Under the pieces are notes generated by a model. The model was not told where the DNA came from and made no database searches. It saw nothing but the letters and a program-made list of their open reading frames with translations. Source: a virus. Taken from it: a DNA stretch of 64,000 bases. Shown here piece by piece: positions 30,106-46,910 of this stretch. Each line of letters starts with the position of its first letter. The stretch's first letter is position 1. The position numbers were made by a program, and so were the translations under genes. The stretch is taken from IMG/VR virus record IMGVR_UViG_3300033141_003544, positions 1 to 64,000 of that record. One strand, given 5' to 3'.

Positions 30106-30446
30106 TTCCTCCCCATTTTAGATCTTTCTTCTTGTTTTTGGACGGCCATTGTTTGCATCATTTTTTCAGACTCTCTAATTAGTTGTTTTCGAACTTCCTC
30201 AATCATTATCTTGCTTTCTAAATGTCTAACTAGTTCCCTCATAATTGCAACAGCCTGACTTTCACCTATCTGGTTTAATTTCATGTCAACTTGGTTTTTG
30301 GTATTAGTAAAAATCATTATTACTAGTTTACCTTCCTCCGTAGGAGCTTTTAATTTGTCTAATAACTCTTGTTGTTGTTTTTCTTCAAGTATTTTTTTCT
30401 TTTTCTCTAATGGGGTTAACTGTGGTCTTTTTTTATTTTTTTTCAT
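30102..30446 (-). CDS. hypothetical protein
   Basis: 114 aa, stop overlaps next start. Confidence 0.6.
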   Translation of the reverse strand: MKKNKKRPQLTPLEKKKKILEEKQQQELLDKLKAPTEEGKLVIMIFTNTKNQVDMKLNQIGESQAVAIMRELVRHLESKIMIEEVRKQLIRESEKMMQTMAVQKQEERSKMGRK

Positions 30447-30775
30447 TATACTTTACCTATTTTAATGTCCTCAAAAACCTGTGGGATTGTTTTTTTCATT
30501 GTTCTTAATAATATTGCTCGATAGACAGTGATAGTTCTTGGTTCTAGTATACACCAAATATTGTCTCTTATTCCTTGATAAACATATAGACGGTTATTTG
30601 TTTCGATAACGGAGAGATGAAGAAATTCAGCTTCTTTAGATTCTATGAATTTTTTTATAAAGTAAACTCTATCTTCAAAAGATAATTTATCTGGTGATTC
30701 TTTTTTTCTTTCAATAGTACCTAATTTTTTCATTTTTTCCCCTTTTATTGACTTTGATTTTAAATGGTATTTCAT
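30446..30775 (-). CDS. hypothetical protein
   Basis: 109 aa; ATGA overlap with sbcC remnant. Confidence 0.55.
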   Translation of the reverse strand: MKYHLKSKSIKGEKMKKLGTIERKKESPDKLSFEDRVYFIKKFIESKEAEFLHLSVIETNNRLYVYQGIRDNIWCILEPRTITVYRAILLRTMKKTIPQVFEDIKIGKV

Positions 30776-30957
30776 ACAAAACTTATACCGTTTTCTCTTT
30801 TTACTATTATAGTTTCTTTAAACCTATCTTTTAACTCATTTGAATGAGAGATAACAAACTTTAACCCACTTACTTCTTTTAAGATTCTAAAAAACAATTC
30901 TGTTCCTGTTGCATCTAATGTGTCTACAACCTCATAACTTGTTTTAGTTACTCTCAT
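30772..30957 (-). pseudogene. displaced 3' end of sbcC (53 codons from Walker B Glu to stop)
   Basis: EVVDTLDATG...KRENGISFV is 36/53 identical, ungapped, to the SbcC C-terminus. Confidence 0.9.
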
Positions 30958-31675
30958 ATTTTTTAATCAACCCTTTAGCAAAAAGTAATAGGTCTTTTTC
31001 TGGATAATTACTTTTTAAACTATTTTCCCATTTACAAAGTAGTTGAATATTATTTTTATTATAACCTAATGAACTATCTACTCTATCTAAAGACATTTTA
31101 TTTTTAGTATTATTAATTAATGACATCTTTAATCCTGATATAGTACTGGAACCTTTTTGATTCTTATATAAATCAAATAAATCTTCTTTAGTTATTGAAA
31201 ATTCCATATTTCTTTTCTTAGCTCTAGATTTAGCACTTGACCATAATTGTCTTAATTGTCTTAAAAGATCTCCATTTCTGGCTTCCCGATAAATTTTCTG
31301 TTTTAATAAAATTTTTGAGCGTTCAACATCATTAAAATTGCTGCGTCTTTCTTTTGCCCTTTTATGACGTTTTTCTATATAGATAGGATCTTTACCTCTT
31401 TCTTTCCTATAACTATTACTTTTATCTAATCGCTCTCTATGTTTTACAGGTTCTTCTAATTTTTGTTTTTTATGTCTTTCTCTTCTTAATTTCTTTTGCC
31501 TGTTTTGATGTTCATTCCATTTTTCTGTATCCAGTTTTCTTTCTTTGTATATTTTATGTCTACATTCTTTACACCGAGTTTGTAATCCATTTTTAGACCT
31601 CTTACTAATACCAAACTTTGATCTTTCTTTTAATTCTCCGCATTTACTGCATTTAACTTTTTCATTACTAGACAA
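30944..31675 (-). mobile_element. free-standing HNH-like homing endonuclease
   Basis: CSKC...CKEC N-terminus; AKSRAKKRNMEFSIT, SLDRVDSSLGYNKNNIQLLC..N..K. Confidence 0.85.
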
Positions 31676-33848
31676 AACTTACACCATTTTCCCTTTTAAC
31701 TATTATTTTATTTTTAAATTTCGAAGCCAATTCGTTATTATGACTTACTATTAACTTTAATCCACTTATTTCCTTTAAAATCTTAAAGAATAATTCAACC
31801 CCAATCGCGTCCAAATTATCAGCTATTTCGTCAAGCATCAAGAACCTAAACATACTATAACCTCGGTTTAATGTTAATTGTCTCAAAGCAAATCCTATAC
31901 AAACTGCTATTCTTTTTTGACCTCCAGCAGAAAATGTTTCAAGGGGAGCTTTTACTCCCATTTCATCAATAACAGAGAGATTAAATTTTGGCTTGTATTC
32001 ATCTTCACTAGTTTTTGGACGTTTCTTTCTTGTTAAAGTATCTAATTGAATTTTAATGCCCACTTCAAATAAATCTAAATATAAATTAACTTGTTTTTCA
32101 AATGCAGGTAGAAAATCCTCTATCATCCATCTTCTAATAGTTTTGAAATGTTTTTCCCAGAAATAAAAAACATCAAACTCTTTTTGAATACCCTCTAATT
32201 CCTTTCTCATCTCTTCTAATCTACTTAACTCTTTTCTTCTTTGACTTATTAGAACTTTTAAACGGGATAAATGAAGTTTTAATTGGTCAACTTTTAATTT
32301 CTTTTCTTTAATCTTTTCTTGTAAATCTTCAAAACCTTCAACAGATAGACGTTCTAACCCTTTCAGTCTTAAAGTTAATTGGAATTTTTTTTCTTTGTAT
32401 TCTTTTTTAGTTTTTATTGTTGAAATTTCTTTTTCTTTTATTTTGTCTTGAGCTTCTTTAATCTTGTCCGACAAACTTTCTTTATCTGACATACTTTCTT
32501 GAACTGTTTCTAATCTTTCCTGTATAGTTCTTATATTAGTTTCATCATTTGAAAGAGTTCTAATATTATTTTCTATTGTAAATATTTGATTATCTATATT
32601 TCTAAGTTTCTTATTTTCATTTTTGATTTTTAGTTCAAGTTCGTGTTTTTTACTAATTAATTCTTCTTTATTTAATGTGTCCAAAATTCCTTTATTTCTA
32701 TTCCACATTAATTGTATTTTACAGTTAGGGCATTTCCAATTTTTATCACCTTTTAACATTCCTTCTATATCAGATAAGTCCCTTTCTAAATAGTTTATTT
32801 GTTCTTTTATATCAAATTTCCTATTTCCAAGAGTTTGCATATCTTTTTCAAGAGTTTTGGTTTGCTCTAATATTTCAGATAAACTAGGTAAACTATACAG
32901 TGTCTCTTTGCATTTTTTGATTGTTTTTTCTGATGCTTTAATATTTTCTATTCTTTTTGTAAATACTTCTATATGTGATTGAGTAAACTCAATAAATTCT
33001 TTTAAATTAAAGTCAGCTTTTTCATCTAAAATATCTATTTCTTTTATACTTTCAATCAGTTGTAGTTTTTCGTTTATCTTTTCATATTTACTTTCTAATT
33101 CATGGATCTCCGTTCTTAATTCGTTTAAATTTGCAATTTTTATTTCGTATTCTTCTTGAAAAGAAATCTCTCTTTCTGAATCTTCCGATTTTAATTTTTG
33201 TTCTAAATATTCTATCTGTCCCCTAGTATTATCTAAATTACTTTTTATATTATTTTTATATCCGTTAGCTCTATTACTACATTTATCAAGAATATCCAAA
33301 TTTAAAAACCTGGATATAAGTGCCATTCTATCCTCAGAAGTGGCAGCTTTTCCTGCAAAGGCTTCGATTGCATCTATTGAAAAATAGACTGTATTTAGAA
33401 AATCATTAAAAAACTCTTTATTGTCTTCTTGAATACCAAGGAAATTCATTAGACTTCTTTGGGTTTGAGTATCAGTTAATTTAGTATGTTCATTGTCATT
33501 TACCCAAAACCTTAATTTAGTCTCTTTACCTCTTTTTCTTATTATTTTTAAACTATTTTCTTCGTCTTTTAATACAAGTTCAACGGAACATTGTTTTGTA
33601 CCTCTTCTTATTAAATCATCTAAGGCCACTCTACTATCTGGAACTCTATTAAATATGGCCCAACTTATAGCATCAAATATGGAAGTTTTACCACTCATAT
33701 TTGAGTCAGCACCACTAGAATCAAAATTTAAACCTAATACAAGAATACTCTCTTCATCTTTGTATTGGTCAAAATTGATTTCTACACTCTCTCCAAACCC
33801 TTTAAAATTTGAACATCTTATTTTACTTGGTCTCATTTGGGTTCTCAA
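31668..33848 (-). CDS. sbcC: SbcC/Rad50-like SMC ATPase
   Basis: NFKGF, Walker A NMSGKTS, coiled coils, CPNC hook, FSAGGQ signature, MLDE Walker B, VSH. Confidence 0.92.
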   Translation of the reverse strand: MRTQMRPSKIRCSNFKGFGESVEINFDQYKDEESILVLGLNFDSSGADSNMSGKTSIFDAISWAIFNRVPDSRVALDDLIRRGTKQCSVELVLKDEENSLKIIRKRGKETKLRFWVNDNEHTKLTDTQTQRSLMNFLGIQEDNKEFFNDFLNTVYFSIDAIEAFAGKAATSEDRMALISRFLNLDILDKCSNRANGYKNNIKSNLDNTRGQIEYLEQKLKSEDSEREISFQEEYEIKIANLNELRTEIHELESKYEKINEKLQLIESIKEIDILDEKADFNLKEFIEFTQSHIEVFTKRIENIKASEKTIKKCKETLYSLPSLSEILEQTKTLEKDMQTLGNRKFDIKEQINYLERDLSDIEGMLKGDKNWKCPNCKIQLMWNRNKGILDTLNKEELISKKHELELKIKNENKKLRNIDNQIFTIENNIRTLSNDETNIRTIQERLETVQESMSDKESLSDKIKEAQDKIKEKEISTIKTKKEYKEKKFQLTLRLKGLERLSVEGFEDLQEKIKEKKLKVDQLKLHLSRLKVLISQRRKELSRLEEMRKELEGIQKEFDVFYFWEKHFKTIRRWMIEDFLPAFEKQVNLYLDLFEVGIKIQLDTLTRKKRPKTSEDEYKPKFNLSVIDEMGVKAPLETFSAGGQKRIAVCIGFALRQLTLNRGYSMFRFLMLDEIADNLDAIGVELFFKILKEISGLKLIVSHNNELASKFKNKIIVKRENGVSFV

Positions 33849-33851
33849 TAA

Positions 33852-34964
33852 CTATAGTTCTTGTATTTCTTTCAATATTTTTAAACCTGTTGATAGATAC
33901 TCAGGGTCATCTTCTTTTTTTTCTTTTTTTATAACATGTTTTATAGCATCTTCAAACTTACTATCCAATTTAACTTCTGGAACTCTTAATGTTACTTTGT
34001 CAGAATTAATAAAATCAAAAAATATTTTTAATGCATTATTCTCTACCATACTGTCTGTAATCCTCTTTTTGTCATAACTATGATACCACGCGTTACTCCC
34101 AATAAAAATAACTTTAATTATTGCACCTTTCAAATCCCCTTCTTTTTCTATTCTGTCAAAAATATCTATGCCACCTTCTCTTATTTCCCATTGTAAAAAA
34201 GGTCTATCATTTACTGGTATAAATTCATCAATTATTTCTCCATTATCTTTTAAACATGAATACATAAAACCTTTTGTTTCCATCCGCTCACCCATGTCTT
34301 TTTTAGCAATGGAACCTGTATAGTAAATATTAGAACCAACTTTTTGATGTTTGTGGTAATGCCCTAAATAAACCCTCTTTTGATTTTTAAAAACTAAAGG
34401 ATCTATTACATCATCTTCTACAAATTCGTGAGCTCCTAATTTAGCTCCACTGACTGCTAAATGTCCAAATACAATATAACCCTTATAATCTTTTATTGTT
34501 TTTTCTATTGAGTTTGGGGAGGGGTCCCATGGGAGCATTAGAATTTTGAAGTTTTCTCTTTTATATTCCCAAGGTTTATCAACGATTATAATGTTATCTC
34601 CTTTCATAATCTCTAGTAATTCTGATTCACCTGATAGATTGTAAGCTTTACCGTCTGTATCATGATTGCCTATAATAATAAATACCTTTATTTTTGCCTC
34701 AACTAACGGTTTGATAGTTTTTACAAATAAGGATTTTAGTTTTTCTGGAGCATTTACTTTATCAAAAATATCTCCCGCTATTACAAAAAAATCTACTTTC
34801 TTTTTGATTGCATAATCCATGGCTTCCCATAGATTATCTAATCTATCGATTAATCTTACATCCCATAAATCCTCAAGACCAAAAATGACAGTTGGAATCA
34901 TTTTTGAATGTGTATAATTACGTTTAAGTTCTAAATCACTACAAACCGCCCAACTTGCTATCAT
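33852..34964 (-). CDS. sbcD: SbcD/Mre11-like nuclease
   Basis: AGDIFD, IGNHD, GH, LGHYH, YTGSI; motif I is SDLE rather than SDxH; adjacent to sbcC. Confidence 0.88.
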   Translation of the reverse strand: MIASWAVCSDLELKRNYTHSKMIPTVIFGLEDLWDVRLIDRLDNLWEAMDYAIKKKVDFFVIAGDIFDKVNAPEKLKSLFVKTIKPLVEAKIKVFIIIGNHDTDGKAYNLSGESELLEIMKGDNIIIVDKPWEYKRENFKILMLPWDPSPNSIEKTIKDYKGYIVFGHLAVSGAKLGAHEFVEDDVIDPLVFKNQKRVYLGHYHKHQKVGSNIYYTGSIAKKDMGERMETKGFMYSCLKDNGEIIDEFIPVNDRPFLQWEIREGGIDIFDRIEKEGDLKGAIIKVIFIGSNAWYHSYDKKRITDSMVENNALKIFFDFINSDKVTLRVPEVKLDSKFEDAIKHVIKKEKKEDDPEYLSTGLKILKEIQEL

Positions 34965-34970
34965 ATATAT

Positions 34971-35525
34971 TTACCTTTCCAATATTTTTTTTATTTTTTC
35001 ATCTATATTGCAAAACTCTTTTGTAAAGTCACTTAGTTTACAAATACAATAATCTTTCCATTGTATCATATTCAATTTCAGTGAATCTAACTCTATATTT
35101 AAAACCTTACTATATATAATATATTCCGGTAGATACTTTTTTGTAAAAATTATTACAGGGTATTTTATTATACCCGTTTTATTGTATAGTTCTTCAGCCT
35201 CATTTCTTATTTCTTCAAACCACTTTAGCAAAGGGCTTGTACTGTCTTTGTTTTTATTCCCTAATAGTTGATTAAAATCCCATATCTCAGTATTCTTACA
35301 AGAAACAACAAAAGGGAAGTCATTAGGACCTACAATATCCCCAACAGTAATAGCTTTTTTTGTTTTCCAATTAAGTCCTCCAGAACATGGAACAACATGA
35401 AACTCCCCCTTACCTCCAGTCCACCACTCATCTAAGATTTTAGCAACAACCCTTTCAAAATTTCTTCCCTTACGTTTGCTCTTTTTTCCCACTGCTACTT
35501 TAATAGGGTTTTTAATTTTTGTCAT
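34971..35525 (-). CDS. putative Holliday junction resolvase (PD-(D/E)xK)
   Basis: SKRKGRNFERVVA, SGG, GDI, VSCKN. Confidence 0.75.
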   Translation of the reverse strand: MTKIKNPIKVAVGKKSKRKGRNFERVVAKILDEWWTGGKGEFHVVPCSGGLNWKTKKAITVGDIVGPNDFPFVVSCKNTEIWDFNQLLGNKNKDSTSPLLKWFEEIRNEAEELYNKTGIIKYPVIIFTKKYLPEYIIYSKVLNIELDSLKLNMIQWKDYCICKLSDFTKEFCNIDEKIKKILER

Positions 35526-35748
35526 TTATTCTCGCCAAGTTTATAGAATTAATAATTGATGCCTTTATATTAACTAAACAAGAGTCAATTATTTTTTGTT
35601 CATTTAATTTTGGATTTAATGAGTGAATCAATTCAATATGTTGAACGAAAATGTTATGAATCAAAATATAATGATCTTCGTTTAGTTTGAAGGGCTTAAA
35701 CTCTTTAATTATTAGACTTAATATTTCTAATCTAGTCATTTTCACCAA
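35512..35748 (-). CDS. hypothetical protein
   Basis: 78 aa, overlaps both neighbours. Confidence 0.5.
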   Translation of the reverse strand: MVKMTRLEILSLIIKEFKPFKLNEDHYILIHNIFVQHIELIHSLNPKLNEQKIIDSCLVNIKASIINSINLARINDKN

Positions 35749-36700
35749 CTTTCAATCCGTGTGGTTCGCTATCTGTATACTCTGCAACTTCTAAACCTTC
35801 TACCCGTCCATCAGGGTACATTAACAATCTACAGCTCCTATAAGGGACACCTACTTTATTCTTTCCTGTTTTGATTGTAACTATTTTGTATTTTAATTCT
35901 CCATTACTTTTCTTTTTATTTTGAGCACTTATAGTTAACTTCAAGGCAAAGGCAAAATCTTTTCTATCTCCTCCACTAGTCCTTGTTGTTGTACCAAATG
36001 AAATTCCAGGTTTAATCCTTCTGTGATTAATCATAATCAAACATGTTTTCTTTTGTCCCATCTTATGCTTGTAATAATCAACAAAAGGTTTACCTTTTTT
36101 AAAAGTCTTTATAGGTTCATTACTTTTTATTTTTGATTTTTTTTCACTAAGTGGGTCTATTACAGAGTAACCCCCTTCCAAATCGTTCCAAAAATCTGCC
36201 CACATTTTTGAAGAAGACAATCTTGTGAACATTGTTGACTCATCCGCTATACTTTCTTCATGTTCTTTTGCAATGGTGGCTCCTATACTATCTACCACCA
36301 TTATATCAAATATATTTAGTGCTAAAGCCAATTTTGTTTTATATAAAACATCTTCCCCCGAACCTAATTCGGGCATAACAAGTTTTTCCAAATCGATCCC
36401 TGAACTTTGAGCATATTCACTTGTCATAGCCCGTTCTACATCAGCCCACCAAGCTAAACCACCCTGTTTTTGAATTAATCCAACTAACCATTGACAAAAA
36501 GTAGATTTTCCACTAGAGAACTCACCTGATATTTCCACAATTTTTCCCCGAGGGAAACCACCAATACCCAATACATGTTTATCCAGTACATCAATACCTG
36601 TGGGTATAACTTCTATTTTCTTTAATCTTTTTTTAGCGGTATTGGCGGTTTCTCCTAAAGCAGCCAAAATTTGACGTATATCATTCTTCTCATTTACCAT
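35732..36700 (-). CDS. recA: RecA/UvsX-like recombinase
   Basis: IPTG..VLD..LGIGGFPRGKIVEISGEFSSGKST, DVE, VVDS, KNKVGVPYR. Confidence 0.92.
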   Translation of the reverse strand: MVNEKNDIRQILAALGETANTAKKRLKKIEVIPTGIDVLDKHVLGIGGFPRGKIVEISGEFSSGKSTFCQWLVGLIQKQGGLAWWADVERAMTSEYAQSSGIDLEKLVMPELGSGEDVLYKTKLALALNIFDIMVVDSIGATIAKEHEESIADESTMFTRLSSSKMWADFWNDLEGGYSVIDPLSEKKSKIKSNEPIKTFKKGKPFVDYYKHKMGQKKTCLIMINHRRIKPGISFGTTTRTSGGDRKDFAFALKLTISAQNKKKSNGELKYKIVTIKTGKNKVGVPYRSCRLLMYPDGRVEGLEVAEYTDSEPHGLKVGEND

Positions 36701-37788
36701 AATTTTTTCTTCTCAGTCGGAGTAGTTTTTGTTTTTTCTTCCGTTGGAGTTGTTTCTTCCTTATCTGTCTCCTCTTCTGGTTCTTGAAATAATCCCTCTT
36801 CAACCTCTTCATCTAATTCCCATTTTGTATCTGAAGTTTTTTCTGTAGGAGGTGGAGATGTTTCAATTTGTACTGTTTCCGTAGGACTTTCTAAGTCAAC
36901 TTCAGTCGGGGATACACTTTTAGGAGCGGGAGGTAATGCGGCTTGGTTCCCTTCCCTCAAAGTTTTCAAACCTAACTCTATAATAGCTGCATTGAAACTC
37001 TCTCTAGAGGGGAAAATGTAATTATCCCCATCTTTTGCGTCTAAGAAGATTGGACTATCAATTAACATGTTAACAATTTGATCTGGTGTATGAGGTTTCA
37101 ATTCTTTTTCTAGTTCAATATTACAATTGTTCATAGCTTCCCATTCAGCCTCAGTAAAAATACTTTTAATATGATCGCCATATATTGCCATTAACTCTTC
37201 TGGACTCTGACCTAATGCCGCAACTGGAACTTTACCTACGAACGGAGCAACACTCTTTGGATCTGGTTCTGCTGAATAAGTAACCCCATAACGTCTTTGT
37301 TTAGAAGGGTCAATAGATTTTTTAATAATCCATTTAAACATAAAAATCAAACCATATCGCAATTTGGTAGGATCATCCGTATCTACTTCTTCTTCTTTTG
37401 TAATCAAATCATTGAAAACTTGATAAGGATATCTTGCAATCTCAACTAAAGGTTCTGCTCTATTTTGATCCATTATTAGATAAAAATACCTTGTAACAGG
37501 TCTAAGACTGCTTTGAGGTTGGTCCTCCCCTAAATCCATTCTGATCTTTTTTTCAATCGCAGCTATTTCATCTAATATACAACCTTCATCAGGTCTTATT
37601 ACCATTTTCTTTTTTAATTGTAATTCTCCGTCTACATTACGTAATGTAGGATACCAAATAAAAGAACGTCTAACAGGTCCATATAAAATCCTATGTACGT
37701 TTTCACCATCTTTTAGATCTACAAAATCGGTATGACCTTTTCTAGCCTCATCTTTATTCTTTTGCGGTTGACCTAAAATTATACCCAT
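36694..37788 (-). CDS. putative single-stranded DNA-binding protein (gp32-like)
   Basis: FVDLKDGENVHRIL N-terminal motif, long acidic low-complexity tail, next to recA. Confidence 0.6.
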   Translation of the reverse strand: MGIILGQPQKNKDEARKGHTDFVDLKDGENVHRILYGPVRRSFIWYPTLRNVDGELQLKKKMVIRPDEGCILDEIAAIEKKIRMDLGEDQPQSSLRPVTRYFYLIMDQNRAEPLVEIARYPYQVFNDLITKEEEVDTDDPTKLRYGLIFMFKWIIKKSIDPSKQRRYGVTYSAEPDPKSVAPFVGKVPVAALGQSPEELMAIYGDHIKSIFTEAEWEAMNNCNIELEKELKPHTPDQIVNMLIDSPIFLDAKDGDNYIFPSRESFNAAIIELGLKTLREGNQAALPPAPKSVSPTEVDLESPTETVQIETSPPPTEKTSDTKWELDEEVEEGLFQEPEEETDKEETTPTEEKTKTTPTEKKKLW

Positions 37789-37797
37789 GTTTTCCTC

Positions 37798-38088
37798 CTA
37801 AAATAGTTTTTGTGTTTCTTGTGATTTGTTTTCTTGACTTACAAGAGCAATCTCATTTACTCTTTTTAAAAACGAATTTAAAATATCAGTATTACCTCCT
37901 TTTATAGATCTAATTTTTTTAGCTCTTTCAAGATGTTGTTTAAAACACTCTCCCCACTCTGTTGCTAATGTTTTATAATGGTTTTTTACATCTTCATTAT
38001 CTGTATCAAATTCCATAGACACTTCTGGTTTAATACTTTCATAATCTCCAATATTAATGGTATGTGAAATACCGATTGTAATTTTCAT
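37798..38088 (-). CDS. conserved phage hypothetical protein
   Basis: TINIGDYESIK motif; AGGA SD. Confidence 0.6.
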   Translation of the reverse strand: MKITIGISHTINIGDYESIKPEVSMEFDTDNEDVKNHYKTLATEWGECFKQHLERAKKIRSIKGGNTDILNSFLKRVNEIALVSQENKSQETQKLF

Positions 38089-38101
38089 TTGTTTGTCTTC
38101 C

Positions 38102-38326
38102 TCAAAACCTATTATTGTTGGTTCTGCATAATGTTCTATAACAATGTGTGAACTTCTTCACAGCCTCATCAATACTCGTTTGTCGTTGTTTTAATAAGTT
38201 AATAAACCATTTGTGTTCTTGTTTTTGGATAAATAATACACGGTCATTGGACTCACATGGTAATGCTTTTGCTAATTTCTCACACTCTTTAGTCCGTTGC
38301 TCGACTAATTTAATTAAGTCTTTCAT
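38102..38326 (-). CDS. hypothetical protein
   Basis: 74 aa, ATGA overlap. Confidence 0.55.
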   Translation of the reverse strand: MKDLIKLVEQRTKECEKLAKALPCESNDRVLFIQKQEHKWFINLLKQRQTSIDEAVKKFTHCYRTLCRTNNNRF

Positions 38327-38910: not shown

Positions 38911-38950
38911 TCTACCTTTCCCTATTAGGCTTACAGTTGATTTTTATAAC

Positions 38951-39805
38951 TTAATTCCATTTTTCTATTCTTTTAGATATTTCAATGATTTTTTCTGTTA
39001 AACTATTAGTACAACCTGTTTCCTCTAATATTTTATAAACAAGGTCTTGATTTTGTTTTGGTTCACCTATTAAATTAACTATGTTGTCAAGATTTGTACA
39101 TCTTAAATTTATCAAAGATTCCCATAATTCTAATTCTTTGCAGTTATCTATTTTTGACATTATCTTCTTTGATGCTGTACCCAATATAACCTTCTTCGCA
39201 CTAATAGGCCCAATACCGGGAACACCTGGAATATTGTCTGATTTGTCTCCTGTCAATGCAAAAAAATAAGGAAGCTGACTTGGCATAAATCCGTACTCGT
39301 CCATTATCTTTTGAGTATTAAAGACCGTCATTTTGCCTGATTTCTCAACTCCTACATGAACCCAACCGTCTGATCGATCTTCTATCAACTGTCTTAAATC
39401 TTTATCTCCCGAAATTATAAGAATATTAAAATTCTCTTTTTGTTTATTAACAATATGTCCAATTAAATCATCTGCTTCTTGCGTAGCAACTTTTAACTGG
39501 ATAACTCCTATGTTTTCTAATATAGAAGTGATCCAATTCCATTGTTCATTAAAGTTTATCTCTAGTGGGGTTCTTTTTCCTTTATATTCGGGGAACTTTT
39601 TAACTCTCCATAAGTTTTTTCTTTTGTCACCCCAACAGATTACCATCTCATCTACTTCATATTCATCCAACATTTTATTTAGAGAATTAATAAAACCATA
39701 AAAACCACCAGTTCCCTTGCCATTATAAGAAAAATCGATTAAAGCATGAAGACTCCGATAAAAAAGATGGTCCCCATCAATTAGAAATAAAATAGGTTTT
39801 TTCAT
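38951..39805 (-). CDS. 5'-3' exonuclease / flap endonuclease
   Basis: LIDGD, PEYKGKR, EADD, SGDKDLRQL, GDKSDNIPGVPGIGP. Confidence 0.92.
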   Translation of the reverse strand: MKKPILFLIDGDHLFYRSLHALIDFSYNGKGTGGFYGFINSLNKMLDEYEVDEMVICWGDKRKNLWRVKKFPEYKGKRTPLEINFNEQWNWITSILENIGVIQLKVATQEADDLIGHIVNKQKENFNILIISGDKDLRQLIEDRSDGWVHVGVEKSGKMTVFNTQKIMDEYGFMPSQLPYFFALTGDKSDNIPGVPGIGPISAKKVILGTASKKIMSKIDNCKELELWESLINLRCTNLDNIVNLIGEPKQNQDLVYKILEETGCTNSLTEKIIEISKRIEKWN

Positions 39806-40893
39806 TTATTATCCTTCTCTAAACAATCTAATTCAAATATTTCTCCCCCAACCTTTTCAAGTTTTTGACGTGTTTCTAAATTAAACTCTTTTGCACGTGA
39901 AGTAATTTTATTATAAGTGTCGTAAACAGTTCCACCAAAAGGTTGATCACTAATATCAATATTATTAGCTCTAAATGTACCCCTTTTAAGACTCATATCT
40001 CTTGCTCTGATTGTTGATTTTAATAAAACTCTTTGATCTTCATCTATGTTTAAACATGAATCTGCAAGATCTAGATTTTGAGTATATTTATTTATTTTTT
40101 TCCATATATTAAAAGCTTCTCTATCAGTTAACTTTATTTTTGTCATACTGATAAGTCTATTTGAAATCTCTTCCATTCGTAATTCCATAGAGTCTAATTG
40201 ATTAAAAAAAGTATTAACACGATTAATATAATCTTCAACTCCCCTAAATCGAATTTTAATATATCCAAAATCTTGACCCATTATTACACCATTAGAGCAA
40301 ATCATTCTATACAAACCTGTTCTTGCTGTAAGAGGTTTTGAAGTTGTGTCAGTTCCGTTAATTACAAAACCTATTTTGCTCGGATCTCCTTTATCTGCCA
40401 TAATCTCTCCAAACTTTGGGTCAGTTGTGGCTATAGCTATTTTGTCATAGTCGGCGTGGATAAAAACGGGTTCTAAGTCTGTTTCTACAAACCTGTCTAT
40501 TATACTTTCAATAGGTTGACGTACAAATGGAGCTTTATTAATCCCTATAACGTTTCCATCTTTATCATGGACTAAAGTTATCTCTTCACCACTGTTAAAT
40601 GTTTCAAGCCTGTTAATATTAGTTGATAACAAGTCTACCGGGATTTTCCTGGCAAAAGGATCTGGTATACCCAATATACGACAAAAGTTTTTGAAAGCGT
40701 TTTGAGTCATAAGCATGGGTTCTCCATTCCATTGAATAGTGCCTTCTTCAGGTCCTTCAACATTAATTTTAATCTGTTCAATAGGATGAGTAGTTAACTC
40801 AAACTGTCTTTCGGATATAATATGTTCTTTCAACTGACCTAAAGACTCAAAACTTAGTTCAGGGTTATTTAAAAAAGTCCAATCTTTATACAT
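39802..40893 (-). CDS. DUF932-like protein
   Basis: GFVING...GLYRMICSNG; TVYDTYN.IT. Confidence 0.65.
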   Translation of the reverse strand: MYKDWTFLNNPELSFESLGQLKEHIISERQFELTTHPIEQIKINVEGPEEGTIQWNGEPMLMTQNAFKNFCRILGIPDPFARKIPVDLLSTNINRLETFNSGEEITLVHDKDGNVIGINKAPFVRQPIESIIDRFVETDLEPVFIHADYDKIAIATTDPKFGEIMADKGDPSKIGFVINGTDTTSKPLTARTGLYRMICSNGVIMGQDFGYIKIRFRGVEDYINRVNTFFNQLDSMELRMEEISNRLISMTKIKLTDREAFNIWKKINKYTQNLDLADSCLNIDEDQRVLLKSTIRARDMSLKRGTFRANNIDISDQPFGGTVYDTYNKITSRAKEFNLETRQKLEKVGGEIFELDCLEKDNK

Positions 40894-40907
40894 TTCAACT
40901 CTCCTTA

Positions 40908-40956
40908 TATTATTAATATAGAGTAATTATTATTAATATAGAGTAATCATTATTAA
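40908..40956. repeat. 20-bp tandem repeat (about 2.4 copies) duplicating a -10 element
   Basis: TATTATTAATATAGAGTAAT at period 20. Confidence 0.85.
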
Positions 40957-40963
40957 CAATAAA
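40935..40963 (-). promoter_or_regulatory. sigma70-like promoter
   Basis: TTTATT-17 nt-TATATT on minus strand. Confidence 0.5.
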
Positions 40964-40991
40964 CCTATTTATTATTAATTTTTTTGATGTA

Positions 40992-41258
40992 TTATGACCA
41001 TTTTATTTTCTTTATTAAATACCTAAGATCTTCTAATTTTCTTTCTTGTGTTGACCTTTTTAACAATTTTTCCATTTCTTTGTAATTACTGCAACAACTA
41101 ATAATTATTTGGTTTTTTCTCCCGTATATTTCTTTAGCTAATGGATGAAGACATCTTGGACATCCTGATTTTTTACTAAAAGCAAGATAAGGACATGCTA
41201 TATTATATTCAGTATTTGCTGAGATAACAATCCCTTCATGAAATTTTAATTTATACAT
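40992..41258 (-). CDS. small Cys-rich hypothetical protein
   Basis: 88 aa; CPYL, C..C.HP, CC. Confidence 0.55.
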   Translation of the reverse strand: MYKLKFHEGIVISANTEYNIACPYLAFSKKSGCPRCLHPLAKEIYGRKNQIIISCCSNYKEMEKLLKRSTQERKLEDLRYLIKKIKWS

Positions 41259-41304
41259 AATTACTCTCTAAATAGTATTCTTTACTATGATAAACAATAA
41301 AATT

Positions 41305-44300
41305 TCAAGATATAAGCTGTGGTTCATCCTTCCATCTATTACTTACAATACCTTCTACTGGTGTATATAAACCTGGTACTATTTCTTTTTCCATCTCTTC
41401 TTTTATAATTGCCATAAGCTCTTCTAGTTCCTCTTTGACTGCATTATGATAAATTGCATCATGCACCGAAAATAAAAATCTTGACTTAAAGTTTTTTTCT
41501 TTTATTCTTTTGTTAATTCTAATATTAGCTAGTTGTAATAAATCACTTCCCAATCCCTGAACTAATGAGTTAACAGCTTCTCTTTCTGCTTCCTTTATTA
41601 ATTTATTCCCGTCTTTTGTCAAAGGGTCAGCGTAAATATTAGGCAATCTTCTAATTCTACCCAATGGACTTACAACATATCCATTTTTATGAACAAAAGC
41701 TTTAACCATCTTTACCCATTTAGCTACACCTTTATAAGTGTTCCAAAAAGTATTTATACAGTGCTGAACTAATTCTTCATCTACTTTCTCATCTTCTGGG
41801 TCCAGTTTTTCATTTATACTTTTAGTTAATTCAGTAGCGCCTCCCAAATAGGTTGTCCCAAAATTAGTTGAATTATGTATTAATATACCGTTTGCTATAA
41901 AATGATGAAATTCATTATTAACCATTAAATCCCAAACTTCCTCTTCTTCTTTTATTTCTAATTTCTTTATTCTTTCTATTTTTGAACTCAGGTCAAAAAT
42001 ATTATTGACATTCCAGTCTCTAACTGATTGAAATTCTTTATTTATATTCATTATCTTCAGCATCTTATTAATTGAACTTAGAGAAATTATTAATCTCCAT
42101 TTTGTTTCTTTAACTTTTCTTAAATTTGAAAATACCCCCACAGATAATAATAGTTGTTGTAAACCTTTACAAAGGTTCTCTGAGCTAGAGCTGTAAACTA
42201 TACTTATTGTCTTATTACTAGTTTTCCGTTTTGTTGTGTGAATTGAACCATCTCCTTTAAACAGAGATCTAATAAACTTTATTTTATTATTATAACTACT
42301 TCTCATAATTATTTTAGGGATATCTTTTTTATTTGATTTAAGTTTAAAATCTAAAATTTCGGCAATCCATGTAGTAAACTGTTTGCTAAAAATGGAAGCT
42401 TTTTTGTAAACATGAGTAGGATAACTTTTATTTTTTACTCTTCCTATTTTTACTTCACCAAATTTTTCCAATAAAAGAACAATATCATCAAAATCTTTTG
42501 AAGAGTCGTCCACCCTTTGTCCTATAGTAATTCCATAAGGATTGGGTGTTATTTTTATTTGGCCTTCTGAAATAATCCAACCTAATAAACTAGATAGATC
42601 TCCAGTTAAATACTTGGGATAAGTTAATTTTTTATAACCGATGTCTTTTGGTTTTGGTAATTTTATTTTAGTAATAGATGTGTCATACCCTTCAATAGGT
42701 ACAAATAATCTATCTCCAATTTTAAGATCAGAAACTTTTTTTTCAATTATTTTATAATCCCTTTTTCTCGTAAACGGGGTTGTGGGGAGTTTATGATTCT
42801 CAGATAGTTTTAACTCTATACCGTTCTTCAAAACTATATTTATTATTTTTTTCTTTTCTTTTTGTTTTATTAAATAAACTTCAGGATTATCCCATAAGCC
42901 TAAATGATCTCCTGGTTTTATCTCTTCTATAGGTATTAATCCTTTTTCTAAAATAGGGATTAATTGTCCTCTTGGTAAGCATTTTGCAATTTTGCGTTGT
43001 CTCACTGTAACCATTTCAGGTTTAATTCTAAAAACCTCACAAGCCATTTTTATATGAAGGTCTTCGTTATCTTTGTAAGCCTTTAACATAACTGGGTCTT
43101 GAGAATACCAAGCAATGATCCTCAATTCTATCTGAGAATAATCATGTTCTAAAAAATAATTTCCAGAGTCTGCAATATATTGATGTCTTATTTCTTTTTC
43201 TCTGGGAATTGTATGGACAGGTACACCTCCTTCACGAACGGAAGGGGAGGCTAAACGGCCACTTACAGCCCCTGTCAGTTTCATATTGTAATGGATTCTC
43301 CCATCATCGTCTACAAAAGTTAATACAGGATTCAAATAAGTAGATATCATTTTTAATTTGTTTTTATACCTAACCGCATCTGCACATATTGGATATTTTG
43401 TAGCTAATAAATTTAATGTCTCTTTATCAGTTTTATATTGATTTGTTTTGGTTTTCCCTTTATGTGGAATACCCATTTTATCGAACAAAGCCTCACCCAA
43501 TTGTTTCCCAGAACCTATGTTAAATTCATAACCTACTTGTTTATAAATTTCTTGTGCTAACTCTTCTGCATCTTTTTCGTATTGTTTTATAACTTTTTTT
43601 GTTTGTTTTAGGTCTACACTTATGCCTTTTTGTTCTGCTTCTTTATAAATATTGTGCATGGGTAAATACAGGTCAATATATAAGTCCAACAGTTTTGGTT
43701 TTTTGTTTATCTCTTCCCATAGATCTCCAGCTAACCTAAAAGTTACATCTACATCACTACATCCATACTCTTTTAATAATGCTATAGGAGCTTTATAAAG
43801 TTGACCTTCTTCATCCTCTTTTTCAGACAAATGTTGCTTTATCTTATGACTATAGCCCCTTTTATCCTCATACCTTCTATCGGCTTGATTTTTAATTGAG
43901 TGTAGTCTATTTTCATCCAACAGATAATCTAACATGACTACATCCATAGTCAAATTTTCTATTTTACAATCCCAGTGGTATTCCATAAACTTAGAATCAA
44001 ATTTATAATTAGCACCTGCGACTTTTTTATTTGGATCAGATACTATTTCTCGTAAACTTCCTATAATATCTTCTTGATGTTCCCCCCAAAATTTATACAT
44101 AAAAAACTCTCCAATAATATAATCTTTCTTTTTCTTTATTACTCTTTCGATTTTCACATTATATTTCTCTAAATCTCTTTCTTTAAATAAATCTTCATCT
44201 ATATCTTTATTTATAAGCAATGGAATATAAATACCTTGTTTTTCTTCCCATGAAAAACTAATACCTATAATTTGATCTGTTCTATAATTCAAACCAGTAG

Positions 44301-44982
44301 TTTCAATATCTATTGCTAATTTCTCTTTTTTCTTTAAAATTTGAAATATTTCATCAAATTCTTCAATGGTTTTAATCAATCTATAGTCATATACTGTCTC
44401 ATTTGCAGCAATTGGAGTACCATCCATTATTCTTTTGACTTCTTTTAAATCAGATAGCCAAACAGTCTCTTCAGCTGGGTTTCTTAAAATATACGCAGGA
44501 TGGTATGTAGGAAGTATTGGAATTTTATAACCTTCACGAGTATATATATGACCTCTGATATTAGTAATTTTAGTTTTTCCTATTAAAACTTTCGAAGCTA
44601 CGTTTCCCAGAGGTATTATACATTTGAGGGAGTTAAGTGATATTAAATAATTTAAGATAGTATCAAAATTAGATTTGCAAGTTTTAATCTCTGTATTACC
44701 AGGAGTCGTATTACCAGGGAGTCTACAGCAACATACATTAAAAAATACACAATCCTGATCATCATCAATACCGATAGTCCTTAATTCTTTTCTTAGCCGT
44801 TGTCCCGACCTACCTTGAAAAACTTTACCTGTTCTCTCTTCTTCACCACCAGGAGCTTCTCCTATAAAGGCCAGTTTGGGTTTATCAAAATTTCCAGTAG
44901 CATTATAAGGATTATAGTGAGAGGGATCATACAAAGGACAAGATTTGCATTTGTCAAGAGGTAGTATTAGGTGGTTTTTCAC
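41305..44982 (-). CDS. polA: family A DNA polymerase with N-terminal family-4 uracil-DNA glycosylase domain, 3'-5' exonuclease and an intein
   Basis: CKSC, GEAPG, CCCR, TYHPA (UDG4); DIETTG, YGCSD (exo); DYSQIELR, AK|STNFG, VHD (pol motifs A,B,C). Confidence 0.93.
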   Translation of the reverse strand: MKNHLILPLDKCKSCPLYDPSHYNPYNATGNFDKPKLAFIGEAPGGEEERTGKVFQGRSGQRLRKELRTIGIDDDQDCVFFNVCCCRLPGNTTPGNTEIKTCKSNFDTILNYLISLNSLKCIIPLGNVASKVLIGKTKITNIRGHIYTREGYKIPILPTYHPAYILRNPAEETVWLSDLKEVKRIMDGTPIAANETVYDYRLIKTIEEFDEIFQILKKKEKLAIDIETTGLNYRTDQIIGISFSWEEKQGIYIPLLINKDIDEDLFKERDLEKYNVKIERVIKKKKDYIIGEFFMYKFWGEHQEDIIGSLREIVSDPNKKVAGANYKFDSKFMEYHWDCKIENLTMDVVMLDYLLDENRLHSIKNQADRRYEDKRGYSHKIKQHLSEKEDEEGQLYKAPIALLKEYGCSDVDVTFRLAGDLWEEINKKPKLLDLYIDLYLPMHNIYKEAEQKGISVDLKQTKKVIKQYEKDAEELAQEIYKQVGYEFNIGSGKQLGEALFDKMGIPHKGKTKTNQYKTDKETLNLLATKYPICADAVRYKNKLKMISTYLNPVLTFVDDDGRIHYNMKLTGAVSGRLASPSVREGGVPVHTIPREKEIRHQYIADSGNYFLEHDYSQIELRIIAWYSQDPVMLKAYKDNEDLHIKMACEVFRIKPEMVTVRQRKIAKCLPRGQLIPILEKGLIPIEEIKPGDHLGLWDNPEVYLIKQKEKKKIINIVLKNGIELKLSENHKLPTTPFTRKRDYKIIEKKVSDLKIGDRLFVPIEGYDTSITKIKLPKPKDIGYKKLTYPKYLTGDLSSLLGWIISEGQIKITPNPYGITIGQRVDDSSKDFDDIVLLLEKFGEVKIGRVKNKSYPTHVYKKASIFSKQFTTWIAEILDFKLKSNKKDIPKIIMRSSYNNKIKFIRSLFKGDGSIHTTKRKTSNKTISIVYSSSSENLCKGLQQLLLSVGVFSNLRKVKETKWRLIISLSSINKMLKIMNINKEFQSVRDWNVNNIFDLSSKIERIKKLEIKEEEEVWDLMVNNEFHHFIANGILIHNSTNFGTTYLGGATELTKSINEKLDPEDEKVDEELVQHCINTFWNTYKGVAKWVKMVKAFVHKNGYVVSPLGRIRRLPNIYADPLTKDGNKLIKEAEREAVNSLVQGLGSDLLQLANIRINKRIKEKNFKSRFLFSVHDAIYHNAVKEELEELMAIIKEEMEKEIVPGLYTPVEGIVSNRWKDEPQLIS
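41872..42981 (-). mobile_element. intein (370 aa) with LAGLIDADG endonuclease in polymerase motif B
   Basis: Starts CLPRGQLI, LSENH, LLGWIISEG, FIRSLFKGDG, ends FIANGILIHN followed by Ser. Confidence 0.93.
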
Positions 44983-45241
44983 TTTTTAGTTTCTCCGATA
45001 CTATTTTATTTTTTGTTTTTAGTTGAAAATCGGTCTCTACAGATTGAGCAATTAAACTATCTATATATTTTGACAAAGATGTTACTCTCGATTTTAATAA
45101 TCTCTTCAGTATCCTTAGTTTTATTCTATATTCTTTATTACCCACCAATGTGTTTATTTTGAGTTTTTGTAAAGACAACATTGGAAGATAATTTCTTATT
45201 TCTTCAACCCAATCATCAAGTTCTCTATGTAATCTATTCAT
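44954..45241 (-). CDS. hypothetical protein
   Basis: 95 aa between deaminase and polymerase. Confidence 0.5.
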   Translation of the reverse strand: MNRLHRELDDWVEEIRNYLPMLSLQKLKINTLVGNKEYRIKLRILKRLLKSRVTSLSKYIDSLIAQSVETDFQLKTKNKIVSEKLKSEKPPNTTS

Positions 45242-45281
45242 TTTTTGTATATAATCTATTTAATGGGTTTATGCTCTTACA

Positions 45282-45707
45282 TTATACTTTTTCTATTTTA
45301 ATATCTTTTAATGTTTTTACAAATAAATCTCTATCCCTTGATATATAATCTAATTTATAATAAATTTTCTTTACATTGGCTGCTATAAGTATTTTATAAC
45401 AATTGATACAAGGATTATGTGTAACATAACAAATTAATGTTTTATACCTTTTAGGTAAGTTTGCAACTGCTCCCGCTTCACTATGGATAGTCCTAATACA
45501 ATGGTTTGCATTGTGTTCTTCACTAAGTAAACAACCTACATCTTCACAATGTGGACTGCCTGATGGAGCTGAATTATAACCTACTGAAACGACTCGATTA
45601 TCTTCAGTAGTTAAAACACACCCTACTTTTAGTTTCCCACACGTACCACGTTCTTTTACTATTTCAGCCATTTTCATAAAATATTCTATTCTAGTTAAGC
45701 GGCCCAT
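45282..45707 (-). CDS. dCMP deaminase (intact copy)
   Basis: VGCVL, GYN, HSE and PCINC zinc motifs; GGAGG SD before ATG at 45707. Confidence 0.9.
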   Translation of the reverse strand: MGRLTRIEYFMKMAEIVKERGTCGKLKVGCVLTTEDNRVVSVGYNSAPSGSPHCEDVGCLLSEEHNANHCIRTIHSEAGAVANLPKRYKTLICYVTHNPCINCYKILIAANVKKIYYKLDYISRDRDLFVKTLKDIKIEKV

Positions 45708-46500
45708 AGACCCCTCCAAAAATTTTTCTTTTCCTATCCAATGAAATTGTTGAACCCTTATATAAATACACCATAAATTTCTCTACCTCGTTCATTGAAT
45801 TAACCCTATAACTATATAAAGGGTTTTTTCTTCCTTTTATTGAACAATTAACCCATCCAAAACCTACTATTTCTTTAATGAAATTCATAACTGATTCAGT
45901 TCCTGCAATAGATACTATCCCTCTTTTGTATTTATTAAGATGAATACAACCATCACCGTCGAAATACCCTCTTATCCAATGTCTAATCAAATCCATTGAA
46001 ACATTTTTTGGGGGCTCTAATACCAAAGACTTTCTTTCTAAAATACCTTTATTGATTAAATCATAATACATTTTATTTGAGCTTAACAGATATCTGTATC
46101 GATAGAAGACTTTACCGTTTAATTTTCTTGATCTCTTACGAGGTTCAAAATTGGCTTCAATTGCTTTTCCAAATTTCTTCAAATGTTTTAAATCTTTTTC
46201 AGCTAAACTTAAATTTATTCTCTTCCTTTTATATCTTGGAGGTGGTGTATATAAACTCCCATCTGCTGCAATCATTCCCAACCAATAAGCTTTTTCTTCA
46301 TTATCAATTGTTTCAAAATAATTTTCATTAAAGGATTTCCATTTACCTTTAGTAGGTAAATGAGATAAGTTATATTCTTTTATTCTTTTTGCAATAGCTT
46401 GTCGTTTCTTTAACCCAAATACCTTTGCTATTTCTTTTTGAGAATGTTTACCGTCTAATAGTTTTTTAAGTTCTTCTGAATTAACTTCTACTTTCTTCAT
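45691..46500 (-). mobile_element. free-standing LAGLIDADG homing endonuclease with N-terminal HTH
   Basis: AYWLGMIAADGS and WIRGYFDGDG; LDRK near C-terminus. Confidence 0.9.
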
Positions 46501-46865
46501 TCATCTCTTTCCTCTGGAATCAAAGTCATGCTATGGGCTTGATCTTCACCGTTAACTTTTAATCCTTTAATTAATTTTAATTTTACTAATATTTTTTTGA
46601 ATTTAGCTTTTTCAATACAGTGTACAGTTCTTATACAATGACCTTTATACAACAAACAACCTTTATCAAGACAGTGGTCTTGTCCTGGAGGGGCCCCGTT
46701 GTAACCAATTGCCGTTATTCTGTTATTTCTAGTTATCACACACCCTGCTTTTATATGACATGTTGACCTTTCTGCAGCTAAGTCTGCTATTTTTAGATAG
46801 TAAGTGATTCTATTCATTCTAGTTCTGTTGATAGCTGGTTTTGTCCTGTCCACAAGATTCCTCAA
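46497..46865 (-). pseudogene. truncated 5' copy of dCMP deaminase
   Basis: AERSTC, AGCVI, GYNGAP, HCIRTVH then unrelated sequence; no HxE Glu, no PCxxC. Confidence 0.85.
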
Positions 46866-46880
46866 AAATTTTTATATTTT

Positions 46881-46908: not shown

Positions 46909-46910
46909 CA

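Follow-up and report, generated by a model that had tools for sequence, protein, structure and literature searches.

How does an endonuclease gene come to lie at the catalytic codons of a phage gene, with neither an intron nor an intein around it, and leave that gene working? The window that we analysed, a 64,000-nucleotide stretch of viral DNA (positions 1 to 64,000 of the IMG/VR record IMGVR_UViG_3300033141_003544), poses this question twice, once at sbcC and once at a dCMP deaminase gene. A sequence-only reading of the window had proposed that at each locus a free-standing endonuclease lies between an intact gene and a diverged fragment of the same gene, that the fragments break at catalytic motifs and that all of the junctions are translationally coupled. 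This much of the description held: the six ORFs are where they had been placed, all on the minus strand (as are all features of the two loci given below); an endonuclease ORF stands between the intact gene and a partial copy at both loci (repeats of 68% for sbcC and 49% for the deaminase); the sbcC fragment breaks at the Walker B Glu and the deaminase fragment right before the Glu of its H-C-E motif; and coupling overlaps are present at all five junctions. We think it likely that the two loci record two separate endonuclease-associated insertions, each with foreign coding DNA that kept the host function. In other words, an uncultured phage of ~105–115 kb would have been struck twice in its replication module.

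What did these genes look like before the insertions? The answer comes from a sister phage, a 114,568-bp JGI contig that we compared at the protein level with the window genes, and on which all of the sister proteins appear to reside. Flanking genes of the sister are 97–100% identical to those of the window; for example, the primase agrees with sister P0182 at 330 of 333 residues, SbcD with its sister counterpart at 369 of 370, and a 114-aa protein at 111 of 114. In this near-identical phage, both sbcC and the dCMP deaminase gene are uninterrupted. The comparison of empty with filled alleles that the sequence-only reading had proposed as a check is thereby available for proteins: sister P0028 (SbcC) and P0026 (deaminase) are uninterrupted and match the window's two remnants at 53 of 53 and 78 of 79 residues. 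Window proteins of 95, 109, 88 and 322 aa occur with exactly the same sequence on three contigs; records of both remnants, of the foreign deaminase and of the LAGLIDADG gene exist for two contigs only, and no cluster member of any of these four is recorded on the 114,568-bp sister contig. This comparison shows that the inserted parts are foreign, that the stub boundaries are exact to the codon, that the change was a gain and that the working genes are intact.

At the first locus, sbcC is a full ORF of 726 aa (31668–33848), full length against homologues of 702–724 aa. Its resident part, codons 1–673 (31830–33848), ends at the Walker B Asp and matches the SbcC-like family PHROG 77 (E = 3e-63). 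The remaining 53 codons and the stop (31668–31829), which complete the expressed gene in frame, are foreign: they agree with both the sister protein and the downstream remnant at only 36 of 53 positions. That remnant, the displaced native 3′ end, is a 61-aa ORF (30772–30957) made up of eight junction codons, 53 native codons (30775–30933) and a stop, and its similarity to the last 53 residues of the window sbcC (36/53, 68%, ungapped, E = 3e-24) begins at the Glu of the Walker B motif FLMLDE. Over residues 1–669, sister P0028 is 97.8% identical to the window protein (15 differences), whereas its last 53 residues equal the remnant at every position and the in-gene C-terminus at 68%; the junction thus separates a stretch with 15 differences in 669 residues from one with 17 in 53 (Fisher p = 9e-13). 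Because the tail of P0028 is that of the remnant and not that of the in-gene end, we conclude that a cassette of foreign 3′ end plus endonuclease entered at the Walker B Asp-Glu codons. The left crossover is bracketed, by protein comparison, between codons 609 and 671 of P0028, and the right boundary of the event is the downstream 109-aa gene (30446–30775), one of those with an exact sequence on three contigs, whose ATG overlaps the TGA of the remnant (ATGA). On present records, the remnant is confined to the window's contig and a 115,171-bp contig.

More distant relatives were less informative. The remnant and the in-gene end share 35 and 31 of 53 residues, respectively, with P0008 (a 49% relative) and 33 and 29 with P0009 (44%), a weak lean toward the remnant being native that these sequence counts may suggest and that the sister protein has superseded. 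Some 70 other sbcC relatives, at ≤37% identity, each have one uninterrupted gene, and neither a second C-terminal sbcC copy nor the HNH-like ORF occurs at any of these ~70 loci. One of them, L075, had seemed to be truncated at Walker B; we rejected it as a candidate, for it is a complete divergent sbcC. A search with both 53-residue ends found no closer donor lineage for either, and the sbcC region had no blastn match in the phage collection.

Is the ORF beside sbcC really an endonuclease? The sequence-only reading had named two endonucleases, and this is the one of the pair for which the name is less secure. P0002 (243 aa, 30944–31675) is free-standing and matches PHROG 1035, 3322 and 3118, which are endonuclease VII/HNH families (E = 7e-21, 5e-20 and 1e-13), with zero matches in Pfam, NCBIfam or the PDB; since the PHROG families are its only matches, "HNH-like" is to be taken as a label and not as verified membership. 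Its TTG start, the only one that gives the full length, overlaps the sbcC stop by 8 nt. By tblastn it has relatives in 41 phage records, a further scan with P0002 returned one partial relative, and its Atlas neighbours with HNH families reach scores of ≤0.90 and a TM of ~0.5. The motif reads LDRVD...NN...EN, with an Arg at the position where HNH_3-type enzymes presumably carry the catalytic His, and a single-sequence AF2 model is poor (pLDDT 62, pTM 0.25). Judged from its sequence, P0002 might be inactive, or might not be a nuclease.

The ORF at the second locus stands on firmer ground. P0005 (269 aa, 45691–46500) is a free-standing LAGLIDADG homing endonuclease that exceeds the Pfam cut-offs of both PF14528 (34.5 bits against 22.5) and PF00961 (28.1 bits against 23.1), matches PHROG 4645 (E = 3.9e-51) and carries an N-terminal HTH followed by two LAGLIDADG motifs, ...GMIAADGS and ...GYFDGDGC. 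A paralogue at 37.6% identity lies at genome positions 64232–64984. The 56 other relatives of P0005 are 30–39% identical, apart from one at 45% over a short stretch, and at none of these 56 loci does a deaminase stand beside the LAGLIDADG gene. Relatives of both P0002 and P0005 are scattered over many unrelated phages.

The deaminase locus is bounded on the left by the primase (46911–47912), the gene compared above with P0182. Next comes a 122-aa ORF (46497–46865) that resembles residues 7–79 of the intact deaminase (49%, E = 1e-23), the similarity stopping after HCIRTVH. The sister protein explains its composition: P0026 is an uninterrupted deaminase of 153 aa whose residues 1–79 match the ORF, up to HC/E, at 78 positions. 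The ORF is therefore a native 5′ remnant of 79 codons ending in ...HCIRTVHC (46617–46853), fused in frame to a linker of 39 codons and a stop (46497–46616), and the stop overlaps the ATG of the LAGLIDADG gene (ATGA). Nothing similar to the linker turned up among the deaminases, elsewhere in the genome or at the loci that were fetched. As the native motif is H-C-E, the Cys next to the His belongs to the resident gene, and the breakpoint lies directly before the catalytic Glu codon. The complete deaminase (PF00383, E = 4.8e-19) has 141 aa from its ATG (45282–45707; ORF 45282–45719), and its start, with a GGAGG ribosome-binding sequence, lies within the LAGLIDADG gene, at the 3′ end. To the right, the event is placed, by protein comparison, between the stop of the foreign deaminase and the beginning of the 95-aa gene that bounds it (44954–45241; exact sequence on three contigs).

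Which part of this second arrangement is foreign? The sequence-only reading had seen two mirror-image cases, in which the mobile unit at each locus is an endonuclease plus a recoded half of the gene and the intact genes are chimeras of resident and incoming halves. This proposal holds at sbcC, where the remnant is native at 53 of 53 residues and the in-gene end is foreign, and it accommodates the fact that both stubs end exactly at catalytic-motif codons. Applied to the deaminase, it predicts that the C-terminal half of the intact protein should be ~98% identical to the sister; we found 44%, and 52% for the N-terminal half, so neither half is native. Both halves instead resemble the nearest relative, P0029 (65% for the N half and 56% for the C half), with which the intact protein has a 4-aa insertion in common, and the window genome no longer contains the native C-terminal half. 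To judge from these identities, the intact deaminase is one coherent gene, foreign in both halves, and not a chimera. Since it is foreign throughout and the native 3′ half is gone, the unit here was the endonuclease plus a complete foreign deaminase. The idea of an endonuclease with a replacement gene half thus survives for sbcC and falls for the deaminase, and with it the mirror image; as an account of both loci together, we regard it as very unlikely. A scan for the genomic surroundings of P0029 came back empty. Neither stubs nor endonuclease genes occur at any of eight deaminase loci, and when the deaminase region was compared with the phage collection by blastn, the matches were limited to short LAGLIDADG stretches.

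How old is the divergence between the copies? For the two sbcC ends, third codon positions are identical at 20 of 54, with pS 0.92 and pN 0.20; for the two deaminase copies, pS is 0.70 and pN 0.32. At both loci these values point to old divergence under purifying selection, and the copies are therefore xenologues and not products of a recent duplication in place. If parts of each gene had first been duplicated in tandem and had then diverged, and the endonuclease genes had inserted between the copies afterwards, this would account for duplicated segments on either side of each endonuclease gene. Synonymous sites between the copies are saturated, however, and yet the stubs are near-identical to the sister, so the in-gene copies must have diverged long before the two phages separated; moreover, the sister has single, uninterrupted genes. 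We accordingly give a tandem origin virtually no weight.

Could the stubs be working parts, that is, exons, pieces of a gene fractured by a split intein, or products that assemble? This genome gives some reason to ask. As the sequence-only reading had reported, inteins occupy two other catalytic motifs: one in motif B of PolA (RKIAK/C...HN/STNFG, slashes at the intein boundaries) and a split intein at the DExH motif of a helicase, which extends beyond the window end. The helicase is a true fractured gene, with the split intein and an out-of-frame LAGLIDADG gene, and the linker after the deaminase stub seems to start with a Cys. That Cys, however, is the native residue of H-C-E. The region 30000–47500 gave no Rfam match for an intron RNA at gathering score or even at E ≤ 1, no intein blocks were found at the sbcC or deaminase locus, no C-intein precedes a C-terminal extein, and the deaminase stub has neither the Glu nor PCxxC. 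Both working genes are complete without splicing and without their stubs. A role for the stubs as gene pieces is thus extremely improbable, in agreement with the earlier proposal of a splicing-independent strategy. At both loci, promoter-like and terminator-like sites are no more numerous than expected from shuffled sequence.

We therefore return to two endonuclease-associated insertions and ask how each may have come about. At sbcC, the cassette would have combined the terminal 53 codons and the stop of a distantly related sbcC with the HNH/EndoVII-like ORF coupled to that stop; it would have entered at the Walker B Asp-Glu codons, so that the resident 5′ part now reads on into the foreign end, and the resident end, shifted ~0.9 kb downstream, would persist as a dead stub that still has its stop/start overlap with the next gene. 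At the deaminase, the resident gene from the catalytic Glu codon onward would have been replaced by a 117-nt leader, the LAGLIDADG gene and a complete foreign deaminase, leaving only the 5′ half of the resident gene as a stub. Each endonuclease may cut in or close to the motif-coding DNA of the uninterrupted allele, as the ending of both stubs at catalytic-motif codons suggests; a co-infecting donor, whose diverged replacement would no longer be cut, would then be the template for repair. On the side where no other homology is available from the donor, the stub may serve as the homology arm.

An alternative would make the endonuclease genes passengers. Both mosaics would then stem from ordinary recombination, illegitimate or at short homologies, when diverged phages infected the same cell, and the junctions would lie at the motifs only because the alleles are most conserved there. 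Diverged alleles do share identity at conserved motif DNA, the catalytic competence of P0002 is doubtful, and no second phage with either cassette was found; the motif breakpoints could indeed stem from recombination at locally conserved DNA and not from endonuclease targeting. Nevertheless, in both of two independent events an endonuclease ORF sits precisely at the new junction and overlaps the foreign coding piece; two further LAGLIDADG elements sit at catalytic motifs in the same genome; simple homologous exchange would not leave a duplicated stub starting at the same codon; and the fungal equivalents of the sbcC arrangement are mobilised by their own endonuclease (PMC3630166). On balance, we judge passenger status for both endonucleases unlikely.

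If insertion with functional cargo is what happened here, is it common? We tentatively propose that phage homing endonucleases commonly invade catalytic-motif codons of essential genes without an intron or intein by carrying a cleavage-resistant spare gene end or gene, and that the stub acts as a homology arm for the next homing and keeps downstream coupling; we hold this generalisation possible, with the odds somewhat against it. If true, it would give phages a general means, so far unformalised, of making mosaics of their core replication genes even across genus-level distances. The two loci have more immediate uses. They provide a natural before-and-after pair: for each of two events in one phage lineage, the filled and the empty allele can be compared as proteins, and the stubs are resolved to the codon. 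The stub boundaries are candidate target sites for two uncharacterised endonucleases. Additionally, stubs and chimeric gene ends of this kind distort phage gene calling, pangenomes and single-gene phylogenies.

How new is all this? A high rank for novelty is not warranted: at sbcC, the arrangement is that of the mobile endonuclease ORFs (mORFs) known from fungal mitochondria (PMC3630166). Hybrid-gene mORFs have been described in atp6 of Allomyces macrogynus, in atp6, atp9, cox2 and nad3 of Glomus sp., in atp9 of Rhizopus and in cox2 of Mortierella (PMC3630166), and in Endoconidiophora C-terminal duplications of cob and atp6 adjoin LAGLIDADG or GIY-YIG ORFs (PMC6279837). The likeness is close: at sbcC, too, the endonuclease ORF follows a foreign C-terminal segment that is in frame with the gene, the native C-terminus has been moved downstream and is identical to that of a close relative without the ORF, and the two ends are strongly diverged, mainly at synonymous sites. 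The differences are that our host is a dsDNA phage and the gene a DNA-repair ATPase, whereas the fungal mORFs lie in mitochondrial respiratory genes; that the sbcC ORF is HNH/EndoVII-like and has no Pfam match, whereas the fungal ORFs are LAGLIDADG or GIY-YIG; and that the deaminase cargo is a whole gene downstream of the endonuclease, with the native 3′ half deleted and not displaced. Our two loci are thus a well-documented case of a known phenomenon and reveal no new principle; they indicate that the mitochondrial route of an endonuclease with a replacement gene end also operates in phages, alongside a related route in which a whole foreign gene is swapped in and a 5′ stub is left behind.

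Among phages, the closest systems are intronless homing by the free-standing T4-type endonucleases SegF, SegB, SegG and MobE (PMC2988022, PMC2330249, PMC2790892) and, in ICP1-like phages, the "HEG islands" of homing endonuclease genes, which mark where exchanged alleles of core genes begin or end (PMC10448857). These systems also place a free-standing endonuclease gene beside a diverged, presumably resistant core-gene allele with which it is co-inherited, and close relatives are polymorphic for the endonuclease gene, just as P0005 is found on two contigs with flanks that are 99–100% identical. To that extent, the deaminase locus fits an "endonuclease plus cargo allele" of the T4/ICP1 type. Those cases replace flanking sequence by clean homologous co-conversion and are not known to leave a stub of the old gene, whereas each of our loci has a stub and one non-homologous junction; cleavage has been demonstrated there by experiment and is here inferred from sequence.

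A last set of systems has an endonuclease gene inside an essential replication gene. MobA of T4 is associated with the gene 60 bypass element, and in phage Aeh1 insertion of an endonuclease gene, mobE, has left nrdA as a gene in pieces. The "fractured genes" that carry split inteins form a further example (PMC2677866). All of these share with our loci a device that preserves the function of the interrupted gene; what differs is the device, which in those cases is translational bypass, assembly of separate polypeptides or protein trans-splicing, and at sbcC and the deaminase is a spare coding copy that yields one ordinary polypeptide.

The window covers the first 64 kb of one contig of 105,577 bp (~30% G+C). 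Its genes beyond ~26 kb lie on the minus strand and constitute a phage module for replication and recombination, comprising primase, dCMP deaminase, an intein-bearing UDG-PolA fusion, exonuclease, a RecA/UvsX-like protein, RusA, SbcD and SbcC. Every ORF named in the sequence-only reading is present in it. The comparison of empty and filled alleles that this reading proposed was run at the protein level, with a sister phage on a 114,568-bp JGI contig whose SbcC and deaminase are both uninterrupted. Sister and window are nearly identical in primase (330/333), SbcD (369/370) and a 114-aa protein (111/114), and the 95-, 109-, 88- and 322-aa proteins occur as exact sequences on three contigs. Both stubs, the LAGLIDADG gene and the foreign deaminase described below have records on just two contigs, the window's and one of 115,171 bp; thus filled and empty forms both exist in JGI-derived protein records.

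At the sbcC locus, three minus-strand ORFs follow one another in transcription order. The sbcC gene itself (31668-33848) encodes 726 aa and is full length compared with relatives of 702-724 aa; next comes P0002, a 243-aa HNH/EndoVII-like ORF (30944-31675) whose sole full-length start is a TTG overlapping the sbcC stop; third is a 61-aa ORF (30772-30957), the last 53 residues of which align without gaps to the last 53 of SbcC, 36 being identical. Within the Walker B motif FLMLDE, the Glu is the first repeated residue. Which of the two ends is the resident one? An SbcC cluster look-up gave P0028, the uninterrupted 722-aa SbcC of the sister phage, recorded on a contig that is likewise 114,568 bp long. 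It has 15 differences from the window's SbcC within residues 1-669 and 17 within the last 53 (Fisher p = 9e-13), and those last 53 residues match the 61-aa stub at 53/53. The stub is therefore the resident sbcC end, and the end in current use is foreign, having come in with P0002, whose start overlaps its stop, as the sequence-only reading supposed in pairing an endonuclease with a replacement gene half. Could the sister instead have lost the insert secondarily? This is unlikely: with no more than 65% DNA identity between the two ends, recombination should yield a chimera rather than an end that equals the stub exactly. Because the sister is known from proteins, the left crossover is narrowed to the stretch from codon 609 to codon 671, and about 9 differences between foreign and resident sequence, counted by eye on the alignment, fall in the 21 nt after the junction. 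The stub still supplies the ATGA stop/start overlap with the 109-aa gene, and a new ATG at the junction keeps the stub translated; together these may be the reason that the downstream genes are undisturbed.

The deaminase locus, also on the minus strand, begins with a 122-aa ORF (46497-46865) that is 49% identical to residues 7-79 of the intact deaminase. Similarity ends after HCIRTVH, and the ORF continues for 40 codons (a native Cys and 39 unrelated residues) to an ATGA overlap with the gene for P0005, a 269-aa LAGLIDADG protein (45691-46500). The complete deaminase (45282-45707; PF00383, E = 4.8e-19) follows, its GGAGG and ATG lying within the 3' end of the LAGLIDADG gene, and this start/end overlap suggests that foreign deaminase and endonuclease gene lived together in the donor. 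A stub-seeded search recovered P0026, the uninterrupted 153-aa deaminase on the 114,568-bp contig, which is 99% identical to the stub: the two agree at 78/79 positions up to ...HCIRTVHC, after which P0026 goes on EINCLTYMEPKRPG... The native motif is thus His-Cys-Glu and the break lies just ahead of the catalytic Glu codon. P0026 also shows the Cys to be native, and we rejected it as the opening residue of the linker. For the 39-codon linker (46497-46616, minus strand), which continues the reading frame of the stub, no relative was detected in this genome or among the fetched loci, and it may represent the final part of the gene that stood before the LAGLIDADG gene in the donor.

Both halves of the intact deaminase are foreign. 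Identity to P0026 is 52% (36/69) in the N-terminal half and 44% (28/64) in the C-terminal half, whereas P0029, its nearest relative in a library of 1.8 billion proteins, reaches 65% and 56%, respectively, and shares with it a 4-aa insertion that the native gene does not have. The C-terminal half of the native deaminase is absent from the whole genome, and the 95-aa gene directly downstream is one of those with exact sequence on three contigs. Taken together, these observations indicate that everything from the Glu codon through the gene end was replaced, by a 117-nt leader, the LAGLIDADG gene and a foreign deaminase in full, with a right junction placed in the final codons or in the spacer of 40 nt. 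The mirror-image symmetry proposed earlier fails here, as a half-gene unit predicts ~98% C-terminal identity to P0026 and not the 44% observed.

The gene copies derive from different phage lineages and not from recent local duplication, judging from their codons. The two sbcC ends agree at 43, 42 and 20 of 54 first, second and third codon positions, with Nei-Gojobori proportions of pS 0.92 and pN 0.20; the deaminase pair gives 0.70 and 0.32, respectively. Since synonymous sites have reached saturation but the proteins remain conserved, each copy nearly always resided in a working gene during divergence. The inserts are not distinguishable by G+C content.

P0005 is a bona fide LAGLIDADG protein, with PF14528 and PF00961 above cut-offs and relatives that include intron-encoded enzymes of Staphylococcus phages. 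P0002 is less certain as an endonuclease: its family matches are confined to PHROGs called endonuclease VII or HNH, it has no match in Pfam, NCBIfam or PDB and only weak Atlas neighbours, and it reads LDRVD, with Arg at what we take to be the place of the HNH_3-type catalytic His. It belongs to a viral family without a Pfam model, the biochemistry of which looks uncharacterised, and its C-terminal domain also matches PHROGs named after T4 Srd and 'decoy of host sigma70'. We infer that these enzymes would cut the empty alleles at the two motifs. In a less likely reading, the endonuclease genes are passengers and the junctions were made by recombination at conserved DNA; this would explain poorly why an endonuclease ORF sits at both novel junctions and why a stub starts at the same codon as the foreign piece.

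Splicing might also account for such an arrangement, yet both working genes are complete without it, and Rfam gives no family in the window at gathering score and none in 30000-47500 at E <= 1. No intein blocks occur at the sbcC or deaminase locus. Inteins found in this genome are, for example, the ~370-aa LAGLIDADG-type intein in motif B (RQRKIAK/CLPRG...LIHN/STNFGTTYLG) of the 1225-aa UDG / 3'-5' exonuclease / PolA fusion (41305-44982, minus strand), and the split intein that fractures an SF2 helicase at its DExH motif (...LIDE/C; 63337-64000 and on to genome position 65892). The helicase layout, namely an N-intein ORF (genome 64912-65892), an out-of-frame LAGLIDADG ORF (genome 64232-64981) that is a 37.6% identical paralogue of P0005, and the C-intein with the remaining helicase (63337-64266; junction ...VLVSN/SHH), is that of the 'fractured gene' of PMC2677866.

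Other repeats were seen in this genome. Short coding-like repeats in the right arm (genome 81099-81222, 84844-85030 and 87379-87640) are spaced ~2.5-3.7 kb apart and 62-90% identical over 19-30 codons, and at the contig start (1-226) a ~90-nt segment recurs ~130 nt apart with 90% identity over 30 codons. Outside the window, a 67-aa ORF (genome 93523-93726, minus strand) duplicates, with 65% identity across 54 residues, the C-terminal zinc-ribbon part of the 189-aa protein next to it (92964-93533), and the two are not separated by an endonuclease gene; the short ORF might be a further stub or else a domain paralogue.

How might the two cassettes have arrived? A likely course is that, in a mixed infection, the endonuclease of a distant relative would cut the DNA that encodes the motif in the resident gene. 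At sbcC, the donor gene end and endonuclease ORF would be copied in during repair, and the far side of the break would be closed almost without loss, by illegitimate joining or through a stub already present in the donor as homology arm; the resident end would thus survive just past the cassette. At the deaminase, resection of the downstream-facing break end would reach the next shared gene and remove the resident 3' half, and the donor's complete gene would enter behind its endonuclease. The many differences near the junctions between replacement and resident sequence would shield the replacements from re-cutting.

Neither cassette was found in another phage among the loci compared (~70 with sbcC, 8 with a deaminase gene and 56 with a LAGLIDADG gene), and the literature searched yielded no paper on a stub-leaving form in phages, which is weak evidence of absence. 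In fungal mitochondria, a foreign C-terminal segment with an endonuclease ORF enters atp6, atp9, cox2 or nad3 (PMC3630166), and the native end persists on its downstream side, where it equals the gene end of a close relative (PMC3630166; see also PMC6279837). The sbcC locus matches these mobile endonuclease ORFs point for point (PMC3630166), whereas the deaminase locus is nearer to the phage 'endonuclease plus cargo allele' pattern, from which it differs in the 5' stub left behind (PMC10448857). The whole case is a well-documented instance of an already known kind of event.
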